DNA of 5,332 bases from a virus (lineage: Duplodnaviria > Heunggongvirae > Uroviricota > Caudoviricetes), in the IMG/VR virus record IMGVR_UViG_2537561977_000027, positions 1 to 5,332 of that record; one strand, written 5' to 3'. Below the pieces are notes generated by a model, which had not been told where the DNA came from, did not search any database, and saw only the letters and a list, made by a program, of their open reading frames with translations. This document shows positions 1 to 5,332 of the stretch, in pieces (the first letter of the stretch is position 1; each line of letters opens with the position of its first letter). Position numbers and translations under genes: made by a program.

Positions 1-1005
1 TTAATCCCCCGTGGACACTGCGTGGACACTCACGCCACCTTTCAGCGGATTAAGGGCCACCGCATCCTGCAGGTAATCCGGTGCAAAATGTGCATATGCC
101 ATTGTTTGCTGAATGGTTGCGTGGCCAAGAATCTTCTGAAGCGCAATAATGTTTCCTCCGTTCATCACAAAATGGCTGGCGAACGTATGCCGCAGCACAT
201 GTGCAGCCTGGCCTTTTGGTAAATCGGGCTTAACTCTTTTCAGCGCCAAGCAGAATTCCCGGTACTTCACCTCAAACAAGCCGCCTGTTTCTCTGGTTTT
301 GATCGCCTCACAAACTGCCTGCGAAATTGGCACTGTTCTCTTTCGGCCATTTTTGGTTTCAAGAAACGTTACACGGTTATGAACTATCTGTTCACCACGA
401 AGCTTACAAGCTTCACTCCAGCGCGCCCCTGTGCTTAAACACAAAAGCGCAACACGCCAGTAGTCGCCCTCCAGTGTATCGAGCAATAGCGCTACTTCCT
501 TCTGGGACAGAAAAGCCATTTCTCGTGGGGATACATAAAGAATAGAAATCCCCCTTACCGGATGCTCTGCATCCCAGAGGCCTATTTTCTTCAGTACGGT
601 AAACATTCCGGATAACCGATTCATGTATCTGTTAGCAGATGACGGTTTCAATCCATCAGCTATCTTTTGAGAACGCCACGCGATAATTTTCAGCTTATCA
701 AGATCCACAGCCTGCATATCAGCGCCAAGCTCATTGATTATGTTGCGCAGTTGTTTTCGGTCTTCTTCCGCCTTACGCCTGTGCTGGCCGTGATACATCC
801 ACCACAACTCAAGCAAATCATTTAGCGTTCGACGATCACGGTAGCCCTGTATATATTCCCGCTTTTCAGCGTTCGCCATGATGTAGCGTTCAGTGGCCAC
901 CGCTACCGATTTTTTGTCAAATACCTTACGCACGCGCTTTCCCTTGCGTCCGTTCGGCCTGATGTCCAGCAAATAACGACCATCTTCGAGCTTCTTAATT
1001 GACAT
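1..1005 (-). CDS. int: Tyrosine-type site-specific integrase, P2 Int-like (complete, 334 aa)
   Basis: Long minus-strand ORF. Tyrosine-recombinase catalytic residues are visible in order: R in TGARWSEA, H-x-x-R in HVLRHTFASH, and Y in QTMAYAHF. The N-terminus MSIKKLEDGRY and C-terminus SVHAVSTGD resemble P2 Int as I remember it. The ORF-track start at 1020 is a TTG; the in-frame ATG at 1005-1003 has GGAGGG about 7 nt upstream and is the more likely start. Stop TAA is the reverse complement of positions 1-3. Confidence 0.9.
   Translation of the reverse strand: MSIKKLEDGRYLLDIRPNGRKGKRVRKVFDKKSVAVATERYIMANAEKREYIQGYRDRRTLNDLLELWWMYHGQHRRKAEEDRKQLRNIINELGADMQAVDLDKLKIIAWRSQKIADGLKPSSANRYMNRLSGMFTVLKKIGLWDAEHPVRGISILYVSPREMAFLSQKEVALLLDTLEGDYWRVALLCLSTGARWSEACKLRGEQIVHNRVTFLETKNGRKRTVPISQAVCEAIKTRETGGLFEVKYREFCLALKRVKPDLPKGQAAHVLRHTFASHFVMNGGNIIALQKILGHATIQQTMAYAHFAPDYLQDAVALNPLKGGVSVHAVSTGD
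11..30. repeat. Direct repeat GTGGACACT x2 (11-19 and 22-30) inside the integrase 3' end; possible Int arm-type binding site
   Basis: Exact 9-bp direct repeat read from the sequence, 11 bp centre to centre, at the int 3' end where the phage attachment site is expected just beyond the window edge. It also encodes a peptide repeat (SVH/VST), so it could be purely coding. Confidence 0.3.
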
Positions 1006-1101
1006 TGCGAAGCCCTCCAATGAACCGCTCTACAATTTCTCCAGCCTCTTTCCAGCAATAATCAGACCAGACAAAGAGCAGGTCTAACCAGTTTTCTGGC
1101 C

Positions 1102-1422
1102 TTAGCGGGGTGATTTTTGGTTTGTTTCGGTTGAAACCTGATCGCCCTCCGAATCGAAGAAGCCATCAAGAGAGAGAGGCGGAGCAATCTGCCCCGTCGC
1201 AGCATTAGTTTGATTAAACATCACCCAATCCGAATACTTCCGAAAACGAGGATGATTCAAAATCAGGAGTAACGTTTCTCCAGGTATCATTCTTCCCAAT
1301 ATTTCATAATTTTTGAGATTGTTTTGAGATACCCCCGTCACCTCTTCCATCTCTCTACGTGACAATCCCTCTGCCTCTCGAATCAGGCGAAGTTTTTCTC
1401 CAAGGCTTGATTTATGGATCAT
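1102..1422 (-). CDS. C: Immunity (lysogeny) repressor, P2 C-type small HTH protein (106 aa)
   Basis: Minus-strand ORF between int and the divergent cox gene. N-terminal helix-turn-helix-like segment LSRREMEEVTGVSQNNLKNYE; the C-terminal part (RFRKYSDWVMFNQTNAATGQIAPPLS) resembles P2 C as I recall it. The ORF-track start at 1440 is GTG; the ATG at 1422-1420 is preferred. Stop is the reverse complement of 1102-1104. Confidence 0.75.
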   Translation of the reverse strand: MIHKSSLGEKLRLIREAEGLSRREMEEVTGVSQNNLKNYEILGRMIPGETLLLILNHPRFRKYSDWVMFNQTNAATGQIAPPLSLDGFFDSEGDQVSTETNQKSPR

Positions 1423-1537
1423 ATGTGATCTAAACTCCACACTATTGGGTTACATGTAATACAAAACATTCAAATAGCCAAAATAAGCCTATATAAGCCA
1501 TTTTGGGCCATTTGGCCGAATTAAGGAGATTACCACA
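1423..1537. promoter_or_regulatory. Divergent promoter/operator switch region (Pc leftward for C-int, Pe rightward for cox and early genes)
   Basis: 115-bp AT-rich spacer between divergent C and cox starts. AAGGAG RBS at 1523-1528 precedes the cox ATG. Possible -10 TATATA/TATAAG at 1491-1498. I could not place the -35/-10 hexamers for either promoter with confidence. Confidence 0.6.
1471..1520. repeat. Five-unit direct-repeat array with 10-bp periodicity (candidate Cox/C operator boxes)
   Basis: Reading in 10-mers from 1471: CAAATAGCCA, AAATAAGCCT, ATATAAGCCA, TTTTGGGCCA, TTTGGCCGAA. Each has an A/T-rich half followed by (A/G)GCC(A), in helical phase. P2 Cox is established to bind arrays of direct repeats in the Pe-Pc region; assigning these particular boxes is inference. 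Confidence 0.5.
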
Positions 1538-1825
1538 ATGAGCGAATCAGAGCTTGAGGGGTTCATTCAGGTAGCACCATATCCACTTGAAGCGGTGCCA
1601 TATCAACTATTTGCCAAGATGATTGGTCGCAAAGAATCAACCGTCAGAACCATGATTGACGCTGCAAAGTTACCAACGATTGACTTTGTGAAACCAGGTT
1701 CAGTGAAGACGCGAGCATCAGAAAACTGGGTATATCTGCCAGCATTTAACGCAGGTATGCGCAAAGCGTTTTTTGATCAGCCGAAAGAACGCCGCGATGC
1801 ATGGTTGTTGTGGCTGGGGCTTTAA
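1538..1825 (+). CDS. cox: Cox-like excisionase / early-promoter regulator (95 aa)
   Basis: First gene divergent from the repressor, with a strong RBS. The motifs PYQLFAKMIG, VRTMIDAAKLP, WVYLPAFNAG and a C-terminal WLLWLGL match my memory of P2 Cox. Confidence 0.8.
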   Translation: MSESELEGFIQVAPYPLEAVPYQLFAKMIGRKESTVRTMIDAAKLPTIDFVKPGSVKTRASENWVYLPAFNAGMRKAFFDQPKERRDAWLLWLGL

Positions 1826-1831
1826 TCATAA

Positions 1832-2038
1832 ATGACCAGCAATATCATCAGCGCCATTTTGAGCCTTGTGTACCTGGAAGTGGGAGTAATAGCGATTTAT
1901 CTGCTTAACAAGCTAACAGGGCAAAAAAAGCGCTTTATTGTTCTCAACGTTCATTACCTCGCCGCCTATACCAGAGGTCTTTTTCCGACCACTATTGGCG
2001 CGGTTCTCATAGCGTTTGTTATTTGGCTCATTGGGTAG
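1832..2038 (+). CDS. Small hydrophobic protein with two predicted transmembrane helices (68 aa), function unknown
   Basis: ATG at 1832, 6 nt after the cox stop. Two hydrophobic stretches (IISAILSLVYLEVGVIAIYLL and TIGAVLIAFVIWLIG) separated by a basic loop (GQKKRF). RBS is weak (GGGG about 12 nt upstream), so it may depend on coupling to cox. Confidence 0.55.
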   Translation: MTSNIISAILSLVYLEVGVIAIYLLNKLTGQKKRFIVLNVHYLAAYTRGLFPTTIGAVLIAFVIWLIG

Positions 2039-2142
2039 AGGCACAAAAAATGAATAAGCAACAGCAAAACAGCGAACCCCATCACATGAGGTTTCGCCGT
2101 AGATACTTCAAAAATGGACGTTATGTAGGATGCATCAATCGA

Positions 2143-2583
2143 TTAGCCAAACAAGTGTTTAAAAGCAAAGGAGATACCTGTGGTAAGCGCAGATGAGGCG
2201 GTGCTTTTTATTGCATCTATCGCCCCACTCTTGGTTGCATCGACAAGTTTATCTCCAAGCGATTGCTTAAGTGACTCTGGATCAAGTTTCAATAATTCAA
2301 GTCCTTTAGCCGTAAGTACCGCCTTATCGAAACTTTCAAAAGGAACAGCATCAGCAGATACATAACCAGCAGCAATAAGCCACTCAATGGAGTAATAACG
2401 AAGAACAAGAGCTTCATGTTTTTGCTTTCTGACCGCCGGGTCCTTCTCTTCAAACGTTGGAGCGGAAACACCGGTTAAAGCACAAACATCAATGGTTACT
2501 TTTCGGGGAAATGACTCATAAAGAAACGCAAAAGTTTTACCAACAGTTTCATTAAAAACATCAATATTTGAAGGTGTTGCCAT
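2143..2583 (-). CDS. Hypothetical protein (146 aa), antisense to the early operon; soluble N-terminal domain plus Gly/Ala/Ser-rich hydrophobic C-terminal tail
   Basis: Minus-strand ORF with ATG at 2583-2581 and GAGG 6 nt upstream. Protein-like composition, whereas plus-strand frames across the same interval are S/A/L-rich junk. Local GC is visibly lower than the flanks. C-terminal tail AIDAIKSTASSALTTGISFAFKHLFG. I do not recognise the family. The ORF-track 229-aa version (to 2832) has a junk-like N-terminal extension and a non-ATG start. Confidence 0.6.
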   Translation of the reverse strand: MATPSNIDVFNETVGKTFAFLYESFPRKVTIDVCALTGVSAPTFEEKDPAVRKQKHEALVLRYYSIEWLIAAGYVSADAVPFESFDKAVLTAKGLELLKLDPESLKQSLGDKLVDATKSGAIDAIKSTASSALTTGISFAFKHLFG

Positions 2584-2791
2584 GGATAACCTCACACAGA
2601 CAAAAGAAACAGCCATAAAAGAACTATATGACGATTTACGTTCCATCATTACACAACAAAAATCAGGTCGGCTAGACCCTACACGAGCAAAAGCCGCATG
2701 GGAAGTGGCACTGGCCAACCGGGATACTGGAGTAATTAGTGAAGTTATGGCCGAAGTAATTTTTAAACTTACAAGAAACATCAGACTGTAG
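2582..2791 (+). CDS. Hypothetical small helical protein (69 aa)
   Basis: ATG at 2582 with AGGTG 6 nt upstream. Charged, helix-like composition (KETAIKELYDDLRSIITQQK). The start codon overlaps the divergent start of the minus-strand gene within CCATGG. Stop TAG at 2789-2791. Confidence 0.55.
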   Translation: MDNLTQTKETAIKELYDDLRSIITQQKSGRLDPTRAKAAWEVALANRDTGVISEVMAEVIFKLTRNIRL

Positions 2792-2820
2792 ATCTTCAAC
2801 ACATTGAGGCAAGTCGGAAT

Positions 2821-3162
2821 ATGAAACAGCAACGTAATTCACGCTTTCGTAATGGTGCTGAACGCCACGCTAACCGTTTCGCTACCAGTGCATCACGCAG
2901 TAACATCCGCTACAGCCTGAGCGAAACACACGCAACACCGGATGGCCACGCTGTAAAACAAATCGGCGAGCATGCCTGGCTGATTGAGAAAGCTGGAATC
3001 GTGGTCCACAAATGCCCACGCAATCCGTTTACCGGAAACCGCATTTTTGCATTGAGCTGCGGCGACAATCACTTCGGGCAGGATTTCACATTATACGAAG
3101 CACTTCGCACGGTTGATCGTCTGCTTCGCGGGCAAAGTTTTATTAAACAGGCTGATTTATAA
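2821..3162 (+). CDS. Hypothetical early-region protein (113 aa), basic N-terminus
   Basis: ATG at 2821; GAGG about 11 nt upstream. Single long ORF with an Arg-rich N-terminal ~30 residues. No family recognised. Confidence 0.5.
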   Translation: MKQQRNSRFRNGAERHANRFATSASRSNIRYSLSETHATPDGHAVKQIGEHAWLIEKAGIVVHKCPRNPFTGNRIFALSCGDNHFGQDFTLYEALRTVDRLLRGQSFIKQADL

Positions 3163-3172
3163 CAGGTGCTTT

Positions 3173-3451
3173 ATGACCAAAGAGCATGCACAAGGTGTAT
3201 TTATCCGTTTTATTGATTTTCGCGGTGAACTGTTATTACGCGCATCAGCCATTGACGGAGTTGTTCCATCCGAAAAAAACGCAGCTACTTACGTTTATCT
3301 GAACGGTACGCGCCTGACTGTGGAGCTTCCGTACCAGACCGTACGAGAAATCATTAGCGAAGCTGAAAAGGCACGTCAGGTTAATGGCGATGAACCCTAT
3401 ATCGAAATTATTTGTATGGATTCAGAAGCTGAAATTCAGAAAGCAGATTAA
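3173..3451 (+). CDS. Hypothetical early-region protein (92 aa)
   Basis: The ORF-track start at 3113 is TTG and overlaps the previous gene. The ATG at 3173 with AGGTG 4 nt upstream is preferred. Stop TAA at 3449-3451. Confidence 0.55.
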   Translation: MTKEHAQGVFIRFIDFRGELLLRASAIDGVVPSEKNAATYVYLNGTRLTVELPYQTVREIISEAEKARQVNGDEPYIEIICMDSEAEIQKAD

Positions 3452-3462
3452 AGGGCGTTGCG

Positions 3463-3705
3463 ATGGGCAAAGAATATAAAACTCTCATTAATAAAGCACT
3501 TGAACGATTTTATTTTCGCTTAAGTGCATCAGGCGCTCATGCTGAACGTGCAGCCCGTGACTCATTGACCAGGGCAATCCGGAGTCTGTATGACGTGGCT
3601 TTTTACGCTGATGATCTGGATGCACTTAACGAACTTTCCGAGCTAATCTGTGCCGCAGAATGCGGGGAACATATTGAACCGTATAAGCTGGGGAATATCG
3701 CATGA
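3463..3705 (+). CDS. Hypothetical early-region protein (80 aa)
   Basis: ATG at 3463, with AAGGG 7 nt upstream. Stop TGA at 3703-3705 overlaps the next start (ATGA). Confidence 0.55.
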   Translation: MGKEYKTLINKALERFYFRLSASGAHAERAARDSLTRAIRSLYDVAFYADDLDALNELSELICAAECGEHIEPYKLGNIA

Positions 3706-3815
3706 GTATATTTATCTCATGGCTTGTTCTGATTATTTCTGTGGCCTGCGCCATTGGGATTATGCGAATTATTCATTCAGTAAAAAAGATTGAACGCTTT
3801 TTCACTGGCGAATAA
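3702..3815 (+). CDS. Candidate 37-aa single-pass membrane micro-protein (MSIFISWLVLIISVACAIGIMRIIHSVKKIERFFTGE)
   Basis: Not in the ORF track (below its length cut-off); hand-translated. ATG at 3702 overlaps the upstream TGA in ATGA, suggesting translational coupling. One hydrophobic helix followed by a basic tail. GGGGA lies 6 nt upstream. Confidence 0.4.
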   Translation: MSIFISWLVLIISVACAIGIMRIIHSVKKIERFFTGE

Positions 3816-3901
3816 CAGAGCAAATAAAACCACAGGTTAAATAAGAAAATGTAAAAACAATCCGCATTCGCGGAGGTATTCGCATACGCCAAGGAGGCGT
3901 A

Positions 3902-4105
3902 ATGGCAATTAAGCATTTTCCTGTCGTTCGTTTTACCTCCAGAGGACGTGAATACGAAGTCGACGAACGCCTGATTACCACAATCGACAAACACCGTTCA
4001 GAAAAGGATGCACATCACATCTATCTCACTGACGGCACTTACTTCTGCGCCACGAATGTGGTGCAGGTGAACCTTATCCGACAGGTACAGGAGTCACGCA
4101 GATGA
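3902..4105 (+). CDS. Hypothetical early-region protein (67 aa)
   Basis: ATG at 3902 with strong AAGGAGG at 3889-3895. Stop TGA overlaps the next start (ATGA at 4102-4105). Confidence 0.6.
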   Translation: MAIKHFPVVRFTSRGREYEVDERLITTIDKHRSEKDAHHIYLTDGTYFCATNVVQVNLIRQVQESRR

Positions 4106-4368
4106 CCATTCTGGACTACATCGCTACCCATCCGGGTTGTAGCGGCGGAGAAATCGCCGCAGCACTGAATACCCTAACCACAGCCATCAATGCTGAGTTA
4201 CGCCGACTCTGGCGCGGCGGCTTAGTCATCAGAACAAACCGCAGCACAGGTGGGCGCGCTCGCAAAGCAGGAGGCCAGGCTTCTTACCACGTAAACCCGA
4301 TGCCGTTCGGGTGTAGCAATCCACTTACTCACATGTTTAACCAGCTACTGAAGGAAACCAGAGCATGA
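4102..4368 (+). CDS. Putative winged-helix DNA-binding protein (88 aa)
   Basis: ATG at 4102 with CAGGAG 8 nt upstream. Pattern LDYIATHPGCSGGEIAAAL...LRRLWRGGLVIR followed by a Gly/Arg-rich wing-like segment (TNRSTGGRARKAGG), typical of wHTH regulators. Fold assignment is inference. Confidence 0.5.
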   Translation: MTILDYIATHPGCSGGEIAAALNTLTTAINAELRRLWRGGLVIRTNRSTGGRARKAGGQASYHVNPMPFGCSNPLTHMFNQLLKETRA

Positions 4369-4664
4369 GCACCATCAATCACCAGAAGCTACGCGAACTG
4401 GCATTTGCCCTGCAACGAATGGCAACGCCTCAAAAATTACTGGCATTTCGCGCAATGCTCTCGCCGTCTGCTGTGCTGGCACTGCTGGATGAGCTGGAGC
4501 ACGCCAGAACCACGGCTCCTGCCATTCGCCTGACACTCCATCATGAAATCGCTGATTTCTGTGCGACGTTGGAGGCGCCAGGCGAACCGGAAACGCCGGA
4601 AGCAATACAGCAAGAGCTGCTGCAACGCATTGACAAGGTTTTTGATTTTTTTCTGAACCAGTAA
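4365..4664 (+). CDS. Hypothetical early-region protein (99 aa), acidic helical
   Basis: ATG at 4365 overlaps the upstream stop (ATGA); AAGGA about 9 nt upstream. Last gene before the structured non-coding region. Confidence 0.55.
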   Translation: MSTINHQKLRELAFALQRMATPQKLLAFRAMLSPSAVLALLDELEHARTTAPAIRLTLHHEIADFCATLEAPGEPETPEAIQQELLQRIDKVFDFFLNQ

Positions 4665-4780
4665 GAAACCAGAACATGTACACACAAAAAACCGCTTGCC
4701 ATGCCGCAATCAGTCAGGTTACATTTCCGTTGCATCTCATAAAACGGGGGCCGGGTTTCGCAGCCTGCTGATCAACAAAG

Positions 4781-4810
4781 CGCACAACCGCGCCAGCGGT
4801 TTTTTGTGCG
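4781..4810 (+). terminator. Intrinsic-terminator-like hairpin followed by a T-run
   Basis: Inner stem AACCGC (4786-4791) / GCGGTT (4796-4801) with loop GCCA, then TTTT (4802-4805). Outer arms CGCACA (4781-4786) / TGTGCG (4805-4810) can extend the helix across a T bulge. A second T-run of six follows at 4828-4833. Confidence 0.45.
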
Positions 4811-4861
4811 TACCGCATTGCCGCACATTTTTTCGCATCAGAATTATGGTGGGGCGTACGG

Positions 4862-4891
4862 GGCCGACTTCGGTCGGGCCGGGTTTTCTTT
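4862..4891 (+). terminator. GC-rich hairpin with TTCG tetraloop followed by a U-rich tract
   Basis: GGCCGAC (4862-4868), loop TTCG, GTCGGGCC (4873-4880) with one bulge, then GGGTTTTCTTTG. The interrupted U-tract makes terminator function uncertain; it could instead be a stable RNA structural element. Confidence 0.35.
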
Positions 4892-4987
4892 GTTGACCGG
4901 TACTGCGAACCTCGTACGTCTCGCCACCCACAGTTTCGCAGCTCTGGATGGTGAGTATTCAAAACTTACCAACAAAGAGGCCATACC

Positions 4988-5218
4988 ATGGCAAACCGCA
5001 AACAGCACCGCGCTATCGCGGAGCGTCGTCACATCCAGACTGAAATCAACCGCAGACTTTCCCGCGCATCACGCGTCGCGCAAATCATGCACATCAATAT
5101 GCTGCATGAGCGCAGCCACGCACTATCAAACATTTATTCCGCCTCTGTTTTCAGCTATCTGGCGGATGATCTGCACGAGCTTCAACAGCTCATCCAGCAG
5201 CAAAACAAACTCCATTAA
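4988..5218 (+). CDS. Hypothetical small basic/helical protein (76 aa)
   Basis: ATG at 4988 with AAGAGG at 4974-4979. Arg-rich N-terminus (MANRKQHRAIAERRHIQTEINRRLSRASR), no cysteines. First gene after the structured region. No family recognised. Confidence 0.5.
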   Translation: MANRKQHRAIAERRHIQTEINRRLSRASRVAQIMHINMLHERSHALSNIYSASVFSYLADDLHELQQLIQQQNKLH

Positions 5219-5290
5219 TTCCTGTTCCGGGCCTTTCCTGCACCTTGCGGCGGGAGGCCTTCGCACATCTGTAACAAGAGGATTGCCGCA

Positions 5291-5332
5291 ATGATTCTCG
5301 CCAACGACTTTCTTGAATACCTGCTCAACACA
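5291..5332 (+). CDS. 5' end of a downstream gene, truncated by the window (MILANDFLEYLLNT...)
   Basis: ATG at 5291 with AAGAGG about 11 nt upstream; open to the window end. Only 14 codons are visible, so identity cannot be judged (a replication gene would be expected hereabouts in a P2-like layout, but I cannot confirm it). Confidence 0.3.
   Translation, partial: MILANDFLEYLLNT

Follow-up and report, generated by a model that had tools for sequence, protein, structure and literature searches.

A mobile head-to-head gene pair with overlapping start codons in the early operon of a P88-like prophage of Escherichia coli

The gene of 146 amino acids (aa) encoded on the minus strand at 2143-2583 of the viral record IMGVR_UViG_2537561977_000027 (positions 1 to 5,332, the whole stretch of DNA that was analysed and is referred to here as the window) is the larger half of a mobile two-gene accessory cassette of temperate phages. 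The window, with its 5,332 bp, is a 100% match to part of the chromosome of Escherichia coli FDAARGOS_943 (NZ_CP065615.1), where the host element is a P2-family prophage of the P88/Xuanwuvirus type integrated beside pdxB. Within this prophage the 146-aa gene (WP_000235157.1; ATG at 2583-2581, stop at 2145-2143), whose RefSeq label is hypothetical protein, is placed antisense within a rightward early operon that runs from cox through orf68 and a DUF4761 gene to gpA. The initial annotation of this DNA had described the reading frame, its position inside the early operon and a ribosome-binding site of its own, and all of these were recovered at the same coordinates, the GAGG motif being located 6 nucleotides (nt) upstream of the start. 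It had also taken the gene to stand alone, which proved to be wrong. The gene is one half of a conserved head-to-head pair, the other half being a divergent 69-aa gene that had been overlooked (WP_000369564.1, a RefSeq coding sequence at 2582-2791, plus strand), which points in the same direction as the early operon.

The two genes are interlocked at their starts. Positions 2581-2584 read CATG, in which two ATG codons on opposite strands overlap by 2 nt, and each gene contains the ribosome-binding site of the other: the Shine-Dalgarno (SD) sequence GAGG of the 146-aa gene (2590-2593, minus strand) is embedded in codons 3-4 of the partner, and the SD sequence AAGGTG of the 69-aa gene (2571-2576, plus strand) is embedded in codons 3-5 (Thr-Pro-Ser) of the 146-aa gene. 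If both starts are used, the two mRNAs are therefore complementary to each other across both initiation regions. The arrangement was followed through 105 further loci fetched from genomes and IMG/VR, which come from Enterobacterales, Pseudomonas, Vibrio and other groups. At 68 of 108 related loci the large gene's ATG forms exactly this CATG with a divergent ATG, which starts an open reading frame (ORF) of 58-89 aa; these small ORFs are homologous to one another and share the motif Q..G.MD..RAR.YW...L....E.LAEAL. When hidden Markov models for both families were applied, 88 of the 119 instances of the large gene proved to have a small gene placed head-to-head. Of 56 unique start regions, 48 have an SD-like motif 4-12 nt ahead of the large gene's start codon, and 53 have a properly spaced one ahead of that of the small gene. 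Existing annotations show this arrangement elsewhere, with a large gene of about 145 aa whose start overlaps by 2 nt that of a divergent gene of about 64-70 aa: in prophages of E. coli DETEC-S792 and JNEC-KY204, where the slot is the same, and in the Klebsiella phage ST147-VIM1phi7.1 and the Salmonella phage FSL SP-004, whose large proteins share only 24-25% identity with the window protein. An exception to the head-to-head layout is encountered at locus L098 (5997-7434), where two tandem large-gene paralogues are followed by a convergent small gene downstream. No Rfam RNA family was detected within the cassette.

Judged from its conservation, the 146-aa ORF is a real and selected gene, because it matches a protein family over its full length, has homologues in a range of genomes and retrieves relatives that align end-to-end. 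The match is to PHROG 2266, a family of unknown function (E 3.3e-29, residues 4-141 on profile positions 2-143 of 144). Homologues with 37-79% identity were found in E. coli, Yersinia, Morganella, Proteus, Arsenophonus and metagenomes, and a profile built from 18 members retrieved 1,589 representatives of 50%-identity clusters with E<=1e-3, 835 of them with E<=1e-10, nearly all of these proteins being 135-160 aa in length. An alignment of 20 members contains 17 invariant and 9 nearly invariant columns, and full-length conservation extends down to 24% identity, covering Enterobacterales, Pseudomonas, Vibrio, Halomonas-like and other genomes. The initial annotation had reasoned that a reading frame without conservation would indicate a spurious ORF; almost all of these representatives are matched end-to-end. 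The view that the ORF is spurious or a decaying remnant has nothing to recommend it beyond the lack of annotation in curated families, and it is effectively refuted by the full-length conservation, the confident fold prediction described below and the conserved ribosome-binding site.

The earlier statement that the protein is not recognised holds for families and defence models alike. Neither the 146-aa nor the 69-aa protein has a match in Pfam, NCBIfam or PADLOC, the cassette proteins are all named "hypothetical protein" in the databases, and the 117 matches returned by a profile search with the small protein are all "hypothetical" as well. Searches of the available literature library by accession, PHROG identifier and architecture returned no description of this family, and a paper on the transcriptome of Salmonella prophages (PMC7067206) makes no mention of such a cassette in BTP5. 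When a Pseudomonas member of the family was used as the tblastn query against isolated phages, only one further record was obtained. The label DUF2513, attached to the UniRef entry of the Morganella homologue, was rejected, as there was no DUF2513 match at E<=1 in 20 members. Among the homologues from the Klebsiella and Salmonella phages, the sole match in a PADLOC scan was that of the Salmonella small protein to PtuB, and it is at chance level (E 0.015, 13 bits).

The cassette is an insertion in the early operon. The inserted segment of about 690 bp, delimited by blastn break-points at 2126-2817, is missing from the phages most closely related to this prophage: Citrobacter phage Shae_phiSM is homologous up to 2125 and again from 2842, and P88_4B11 and PhiR44_2 are homologous up to 2036 and again from 2818. 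In these three phages the slot is empty or holds two 35-aa ORFs, both cassette genes being missing, and in other E. coli P88-like prophages cox or orf68 directly abuts the DUF4761 gene. Most of the insert is present in only 3 of 5,426 complete E. coli genomes. A further 7 of these genomes have the small gene accompanied by a 13-codon stub of the large gene on the opposite strand; the large gene has therefore been deleted there and the small gene kept. Wherever a full-cassette locus was inspected, the cassette stands directly upstream of the DUF4761 gene, as does the orphan small gene (2970-3231) in the one orphan locus inspected, E. coli EC2 (L121). These observations bear out the earlier proposal of a moron-like accessory insertion.

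The composition of the insert differs from that of its surroundings, although by less than had been claimed. The G+C (GC) content of the insert is 41.4%, against 46.4% and 49.4% in its flanks, and that of the 146-aa gene is 41.0%, against 48.8% in the integrase gene and 47.1% in the whole window. At third codon positions the GC fraction (GC3) is 0.29 and 0.33 in the large and small cassette genes, compared with 0.42-0.56 in most neighbours and 0.34-0.36 in two other early genes. The initial annotation was thus right as to the direction of the difference and overstated its size, since other parts of the window are equally AT-rich, with 200-nt windows across 1301-1500 at 38% GC. Immediately to the left of the cassette, at 2050-2125 on the plus strand, is a 25-codon remnant, MNKQQQNSEPHHMRFRRRYFKNGRY, which resembles the start of the DUF4761 gene, and a 16-nt imperfect direct repeat (2052-2067 and 2817-2832) flanks the insert; in Shae_phiSM the remnant and DUF4761 units are fused into one 152-aa gene. 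The remnant and repeat may be a recombination joint for cassette exchange.

The cassette has a fixed polarity relative to the operons that host it. In the window, early transcription driven by Pe would first cross the 146-aa gene in the antisense direction and then the 69-aa gene in the sense direction. This polarity is also seen in Morganella and 186-like prophages, where the cassette follows cox or cII, in Yersinia prophages, where it is located between the repressor and cox, in Pseudomonas prophages, where it occupies either the slot between the large terminase and gpW/portal genes or that between the tail tube and gpE chaperone genes, and in the gpA-gpQ region, where it comes after a retron type VI operon. 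With genes called heuristically as the longest non-overlapping ORFs, the gene past the large gene's stop is convergent with the large gene at 69 of 75 partnered loci; these convergent neighbours belong to 24 distinct families, against 5 in the opposite orientation (binomial p 5e-4), and the stop-to-stop gap is at most 5 nt in 38 of the 69 convergent cases. Both flanks are co-oriented with the small gene at 42 loci, representing 20 distinct contexts, and the mirror arrangement occurs at 2, these left-flank figures being undercounts in GC-rich genomes.

Several of these contexts have features of their own. In Pseudomonas prophages or tailocin-like clusters, locus L010 and about 30 others have the cassette between the large terminase and gpW/portal genes, and locus L058 and about 15 others have it between the tail tube and gpE chaperone genes; the stop codons of the large gene and its neighbour are often 0-4 nt apart, and the small proteins of the tail context have a Cys-rich C-terminal tail, for example PRCQCHCCRHC. 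In the Yersinia prophage loci L118-L120, an antisense 155-aa gene without a Pfam match (4781-5248) is located between cox and the cassette, and this gene may be a second moron with the same polarity.

An antisense gene inside a rightward operon needs a promoter of its own, as had been recognised, and the signals around the 146-aa gene were examined. The best candidate is a sigma-70-like promoter, TTGCCT-N16-TACAGT, at 2785-2812 on the minus strand, near the right edge of the insert, with a position weight matrix score of 9.8, which corresponds to the 90th percentile of the best scores per 300-nt window in this sequence; a transcript from this site would be antisense to the entire 69-aa gene. 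A weaker candidate is found at 2704-2676. No comparable promoter facing the small gene is present inside the large gene (best score 6.2, approximately the background median), and in this context the 69-aa gene therefore probably depends on read-through from Pe. A strict sigma-70 consensus scan of 1400-3200 returned no promoter, a result that is uninformative because the scan missed even the cox-repressor region at 1423-1537, the expected site of the P2-type Pe and Pc promoters. The aligned upstream regions of close relatives showed no clear operator. On the other side of the 146-aa gene, 50 nt past its stop, a terminator-like hairpin followed by a T-rich tract is present on the minus strand (2075-2093), with no T-run after it on the plus strand, and this candidate would end the cassette transcript without blocking the early operon. 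Towards its 3' end, at 2731-2771, the small gene contains two 17-nt direct repeats, AGTAATTAGTGAAGTTA and AGTAATTTTTAAACTTA, 24 nt apart, which are a short way downstream of the large gene's best promoter candidate.

AlphaFold2 (AF2), supplied with the family alignment, predicts a mostly confident winged-helix domain in residues 1-99 of the 146-aa protein (helix 6-24, strand 29-32, helix 33-37, helix 49-71, hairpin 75-90 and helix 92-98), in the H1-b1-H2-H3-b2-b3 order typical of winged helices. Residues 100-146 are modelled as low-confidence helices and include the conserved positions G110, D111, K112, A116, K118, G120, L133 and G136. This tail is rich in Ala, Leu, Gly and Ser, much as the initial annotation had described it, but the suggested membrane-anchoring hydrophobicity was not borne out: the highest Kyte-Doolittle mean over 19 residues is 0.75 here, with a median of 0.98 in the family, and only 1% of 157 members reach 1.6, the value taken as transmembrane level for a stretch of about 19 residues. 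A transmembrane anchor formed by the tail was rejected on these grounds. None of 20 members, nor the 146-aa protein itself, matches a Pfam helix-turn-helix (HTH) family, and sequence-profile searches of the PDB gave chance-level matches only, MarR among them at E 0.32. The large family is acidic (median isoelectric point 5.0, 92% of members below 6), a property that speaks for a winged helix that binds proteins and against a repressor of the classical DNA-binding type; the small family is mildly basic (median 7.9). The 69-aa protein is predicted to form a three-helix bundle (mean AF2 predicted local distance difference test score 92), and no informative structural or sequence relatives of it were found.

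In Salmonella, E. coli, Klebsiella and Citrobacter a distant subfamily of the cassette, with proteins of 143/145 aa and 63/64 aa, is very common, and single alleles are present on at least 1,000 contigs. In P2-like prophages this subfamily occupies the interval from gpA to the portal gene gpQ (L122-L129, L006 and L007), a region recognised as a hotspot of antiviral systems (Rousset et al., PMC9122126). The cargo beside the cassette alternates in this region, consisting of a retron type VI (reverse transcriptase plus HTH protein; PADLOC models RT_VI, E 3e-104, and HTH_VI, E 2e-30), PDC-M48A/B (E 8e-51 and 1e-100) or a Fic protein (PDC-S04/SoFic). One large-gene homologue resides in an element resembling an integrative and conjugative element (ICE). 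The initial annotation had placed the known P2 morons at other loci, and it is correct that the slot in the window differs from theirs, yet this subfamily, at 24-25% identity, is common in the very gpA-gpQ hotspot.

The preferred reading of the cassette, held tentatively and with rather less than even confidence, is that the 146-aa protein is an effector made in the lysogen, shut off by lytic read-through and neutralised by the 69-aa protein. In the lysogen Pe would be repressed and the 146-aa protein would be made from its own promoter, for which 2812-2785 is the best candidate. As an effector it would most likely be a prophage-borne anti-phage or exclusion factor, and it would act through protein-protein contacts and not through DNA binding. 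Once the lytic operon fires, convergent transcription together with pairing of the 5' RNA regions would silence the effector gene, and the three-helix small protein made in the lytic phase would neutralise leftover effector, thus providing self-immunity. The orientation bias and the defence neighbours add to the plausibility of the expression in the lysogen and of the putative function in exclusion, abortive infection or toxicity that had been put forward at the outset, and early operons that keep only the small gene of the cassette are what an independently useful antagonist would lead one to expect. The contrast between an acidic large and a mildly basic small family, and the candidate promoter and minus-strand-only terminator-like hairpin of the large gene, also count in favour of this reading. 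It is rather unlikely that the cassette is a hitherto unrecognised, widespread phage immunity module in which start-interlocked mRNAs occlude each other's ribosome-binding sites and so form an RNA-level toggle set by lytic-operon transcription, with self-immunity built into the gene layout; were this the case, stand-alone small genes in other phages would be anti-defence genes.

A number of observations weigh against the reading of a lysogen-made effector with a lytic antagonist. Neither window protein matches any of the 5,027 models of PADLOC-DB v2.0.0 at E<=1, no effector-type domain (nuclease, NADase or pore) is recognisable in the cassette proteins, and the tail, not being a transmembrane segment, points to no killing or blocking activity. 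The small partner is missing in 29 of 119 large-gene instances, about a quarter, and one of the hotspot arrangements has the large gene and the gene after it (PDC-M48B) on the same strand. The promoters and terminator of the cassette are only consensus-like candidates, and similar promoter candidates occur in close relatives while their enrichment and conservation of position across the family are weak. The neighbourhood in the defence hotspot, finally, is only guilt by association.

Other explanations can be set beside the preferred one. The cassette could be a regulatory switch in which a winged-helix repressor or roadblock and a small anti-repressor gate operon read-through or the adjacent cargo, with no effector function. 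The fold is nearest to that of MarR, PadR and TubR-type DNA binders, the promoters would face each other as they do in the lysis-lysogeny switches of 186 and P2, the hotspot cassette adjoins variable cargo (retron VI, PDC-M48 or Fic), and the cassette is found inside operons with essential downstream genes; the acidity of the large family weakens the case, and such a switch is considered unlikely. An addiction module resembling toxin-antitoxin (TA) systems, in which the 146-aa protein would be toxic by way of its small-residue-rich tail and the 69-aa protein, an antisense RNA or both would be the antidote, stabilising itself and its carrier with no dedicated anti-phage role, would account for a small two-gene cassette that moves among many contexts, including the ICE-like element, and for orphan small-gene copies, as orphan antitoxins also exist. 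Its obligatory 5' antisense overlap recalls divergent type I TA loci such as tisB/istR-1, shoB/ohsC and zorO/orzO, which are divergently transcribed and have 5' ends that are complementary across the translation-initiation region. A module of this kind is nevertheless decidedly unlikely: the partners are not co-transcribed as in type II TA, both are conserved proteins, the tail falls below transmembrane hydrophobicity, unlike type I toxins, around 25% of loci hold the putative toxin without its antidote, and plain addiction does not predict a strong orientation bias in lytic operons.

The proposal of the initial annotation, a single independently transcribed moron with a membrane-active tail that acts in superinfection exclusion at the envelope, agrees with an AT-richer insertion that needs its own promoter and with a conserved tail rich in Ala, Leu, Gly and Ser. 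It is difficult to reconcile with a partner gene that is conserved and physically interlocked, with the low hydropathy of the tail both here and in the family, and with AF2 models that have no confident transmembrane-like helix, and it is regarded as highly unlikely.

Among systems already characterised, a close counterpart to the proposed lysogen-made effector and its lytic antagonist is the Tha-Ith "noncontiguous operon" of Staphylococcus aureus prophages, in which antisense control coupled to the life cycle is combined with a small protein inhibitor (Rostol et al. 2024, PMC11087260). Both are prophage pairs on opposite strands with overlapping transcripts; mutually exclusive expression tied to lysogeny or lysis was shown for Tha-Ith and would apply to the cassette by inference, a small protein that acts as an inhibitor to prevent autoimmunity is proposed for the cassette, and in both cases phages that have the inhibitor, here putative, alone exist. 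The two are unrelated in sequence and fold, as Tha is a HEPN protein and Ith is the former "xis", whereas no significant HEPN match was detected in the window protein or in 20 members of its family (HEPN_LA2681 in one member is at chance level, E 0.079). The layouts also differ. In the staphylococcal system the effector belongs to the cI (lysogenic) operon and it is the inhibitor that is embedded in antisense, whereas here the putative effector gene has the embedded antisense position, within a lytic operon, and the small gene is sense, and the overlap is at two start codons with reciprocal ribosome-binding sites.

Like phage morons (Hendrix/Juhala; P2 old, tin and fun(Z)), the cassette is a dispensable, AT-richer insert between conserved genes; some relatives carry it and others lack it, its orientation calls for a promoter of its own, and the related subfamily shares the gpA-gpQ locus with old and tin. 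The cassette has no homology to old, tin or fun(Z), consists of two interlocked genes whose polarity relative to the host operon is fixed, and in the window occupies a slot between cox/orf68 and the DUF4761 gene that is no described P2 hotspot. The N-terminal 99 residues of the large protein resemble MarR and PadR proteins in their predicted H-b-H-H-wing order and in the signature L..xGY(I/V)....LT.KG..LL; the protein differs from them in lacking a Pfam MarR, PadR or HTH match, in being acidic, and in having an unrelated conserved C-terminal tail and no MarR-type dimerisation helices. With the type I TA loci named above the cassette shares the divergent, 5'-complementary layout, the difference being that both of its partners are conserved proteins and that the 146-aa product is a soluble-looking winged helix as opposed to a hydrophobic peptide of less than 60 aa. 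A type II TA operon was rejected, since the cassette genes are divergent with overlapping starts and not co-oriented.

The remainder of the window conforms to the host prophage. On the left are the integrase gene (1-1005/1020, minus strand) and a C-type HTH repressor gene (1102-1422, minus strand), followed on the plus strand by cox (1538-1825), the first of the early operon genes named here. Right after cox is orf68 (1832-2038, plus strand), a conserved 68-aa gene assigned to PHROG 14475, of unknown function, which is present in most P88-like relatives; its two hydrophobic stretches suggest that the product is a small membrane protein. To the right of the cassette, the DUF4761 gene (2821-3162, plus strand) of the early operon is followed by a 91-aa gene, a DUF4754 gene, a MarR-like gene and more early genes, which in the RefSeq record lead to the replication endonuclease gene gpA, just past the end of the window. 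Two Rfam matches, both above the gathering score, are located in the gap between a 99-aa gene (4365-4664) and a 76-aa ORF (4988-5218): an isrK Hfq-binding RNA (RF01394) at 4732-4806 on the plus strand (56.9 bits) and, after it, a C4 antisense RNA (RF01695) at 4842-4931 on the plus strand (77.8 bits). This gap is the GC-rich stretch that had served the initial annotation as its reference for composition.

As a kind of element the cassette is familiar, being a prophage moron with a possible role in defence that includes self-immunity, while its protein family, its start-interlocked architecture and its rule of polarity appear to be undescribed. If the proposed function is true, the cassette would represent a common defence-type module that is missed by present defence finders. 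It would also be a clean natural case of regulation by divergent genes that overlap at their start codons, with protein sequence, two ribosome-binding sites and antisense control all contained within the same 30 nt, and it would extend self-immunity by antisense "noncontiguous operon" from staphylococcal phages to P2-, lambda- and tailocin-type elements of Gram-negative bacteria. Whatever the function, the consistent orientation that the cassette takes in lytic operons is a strong and testable regularity.

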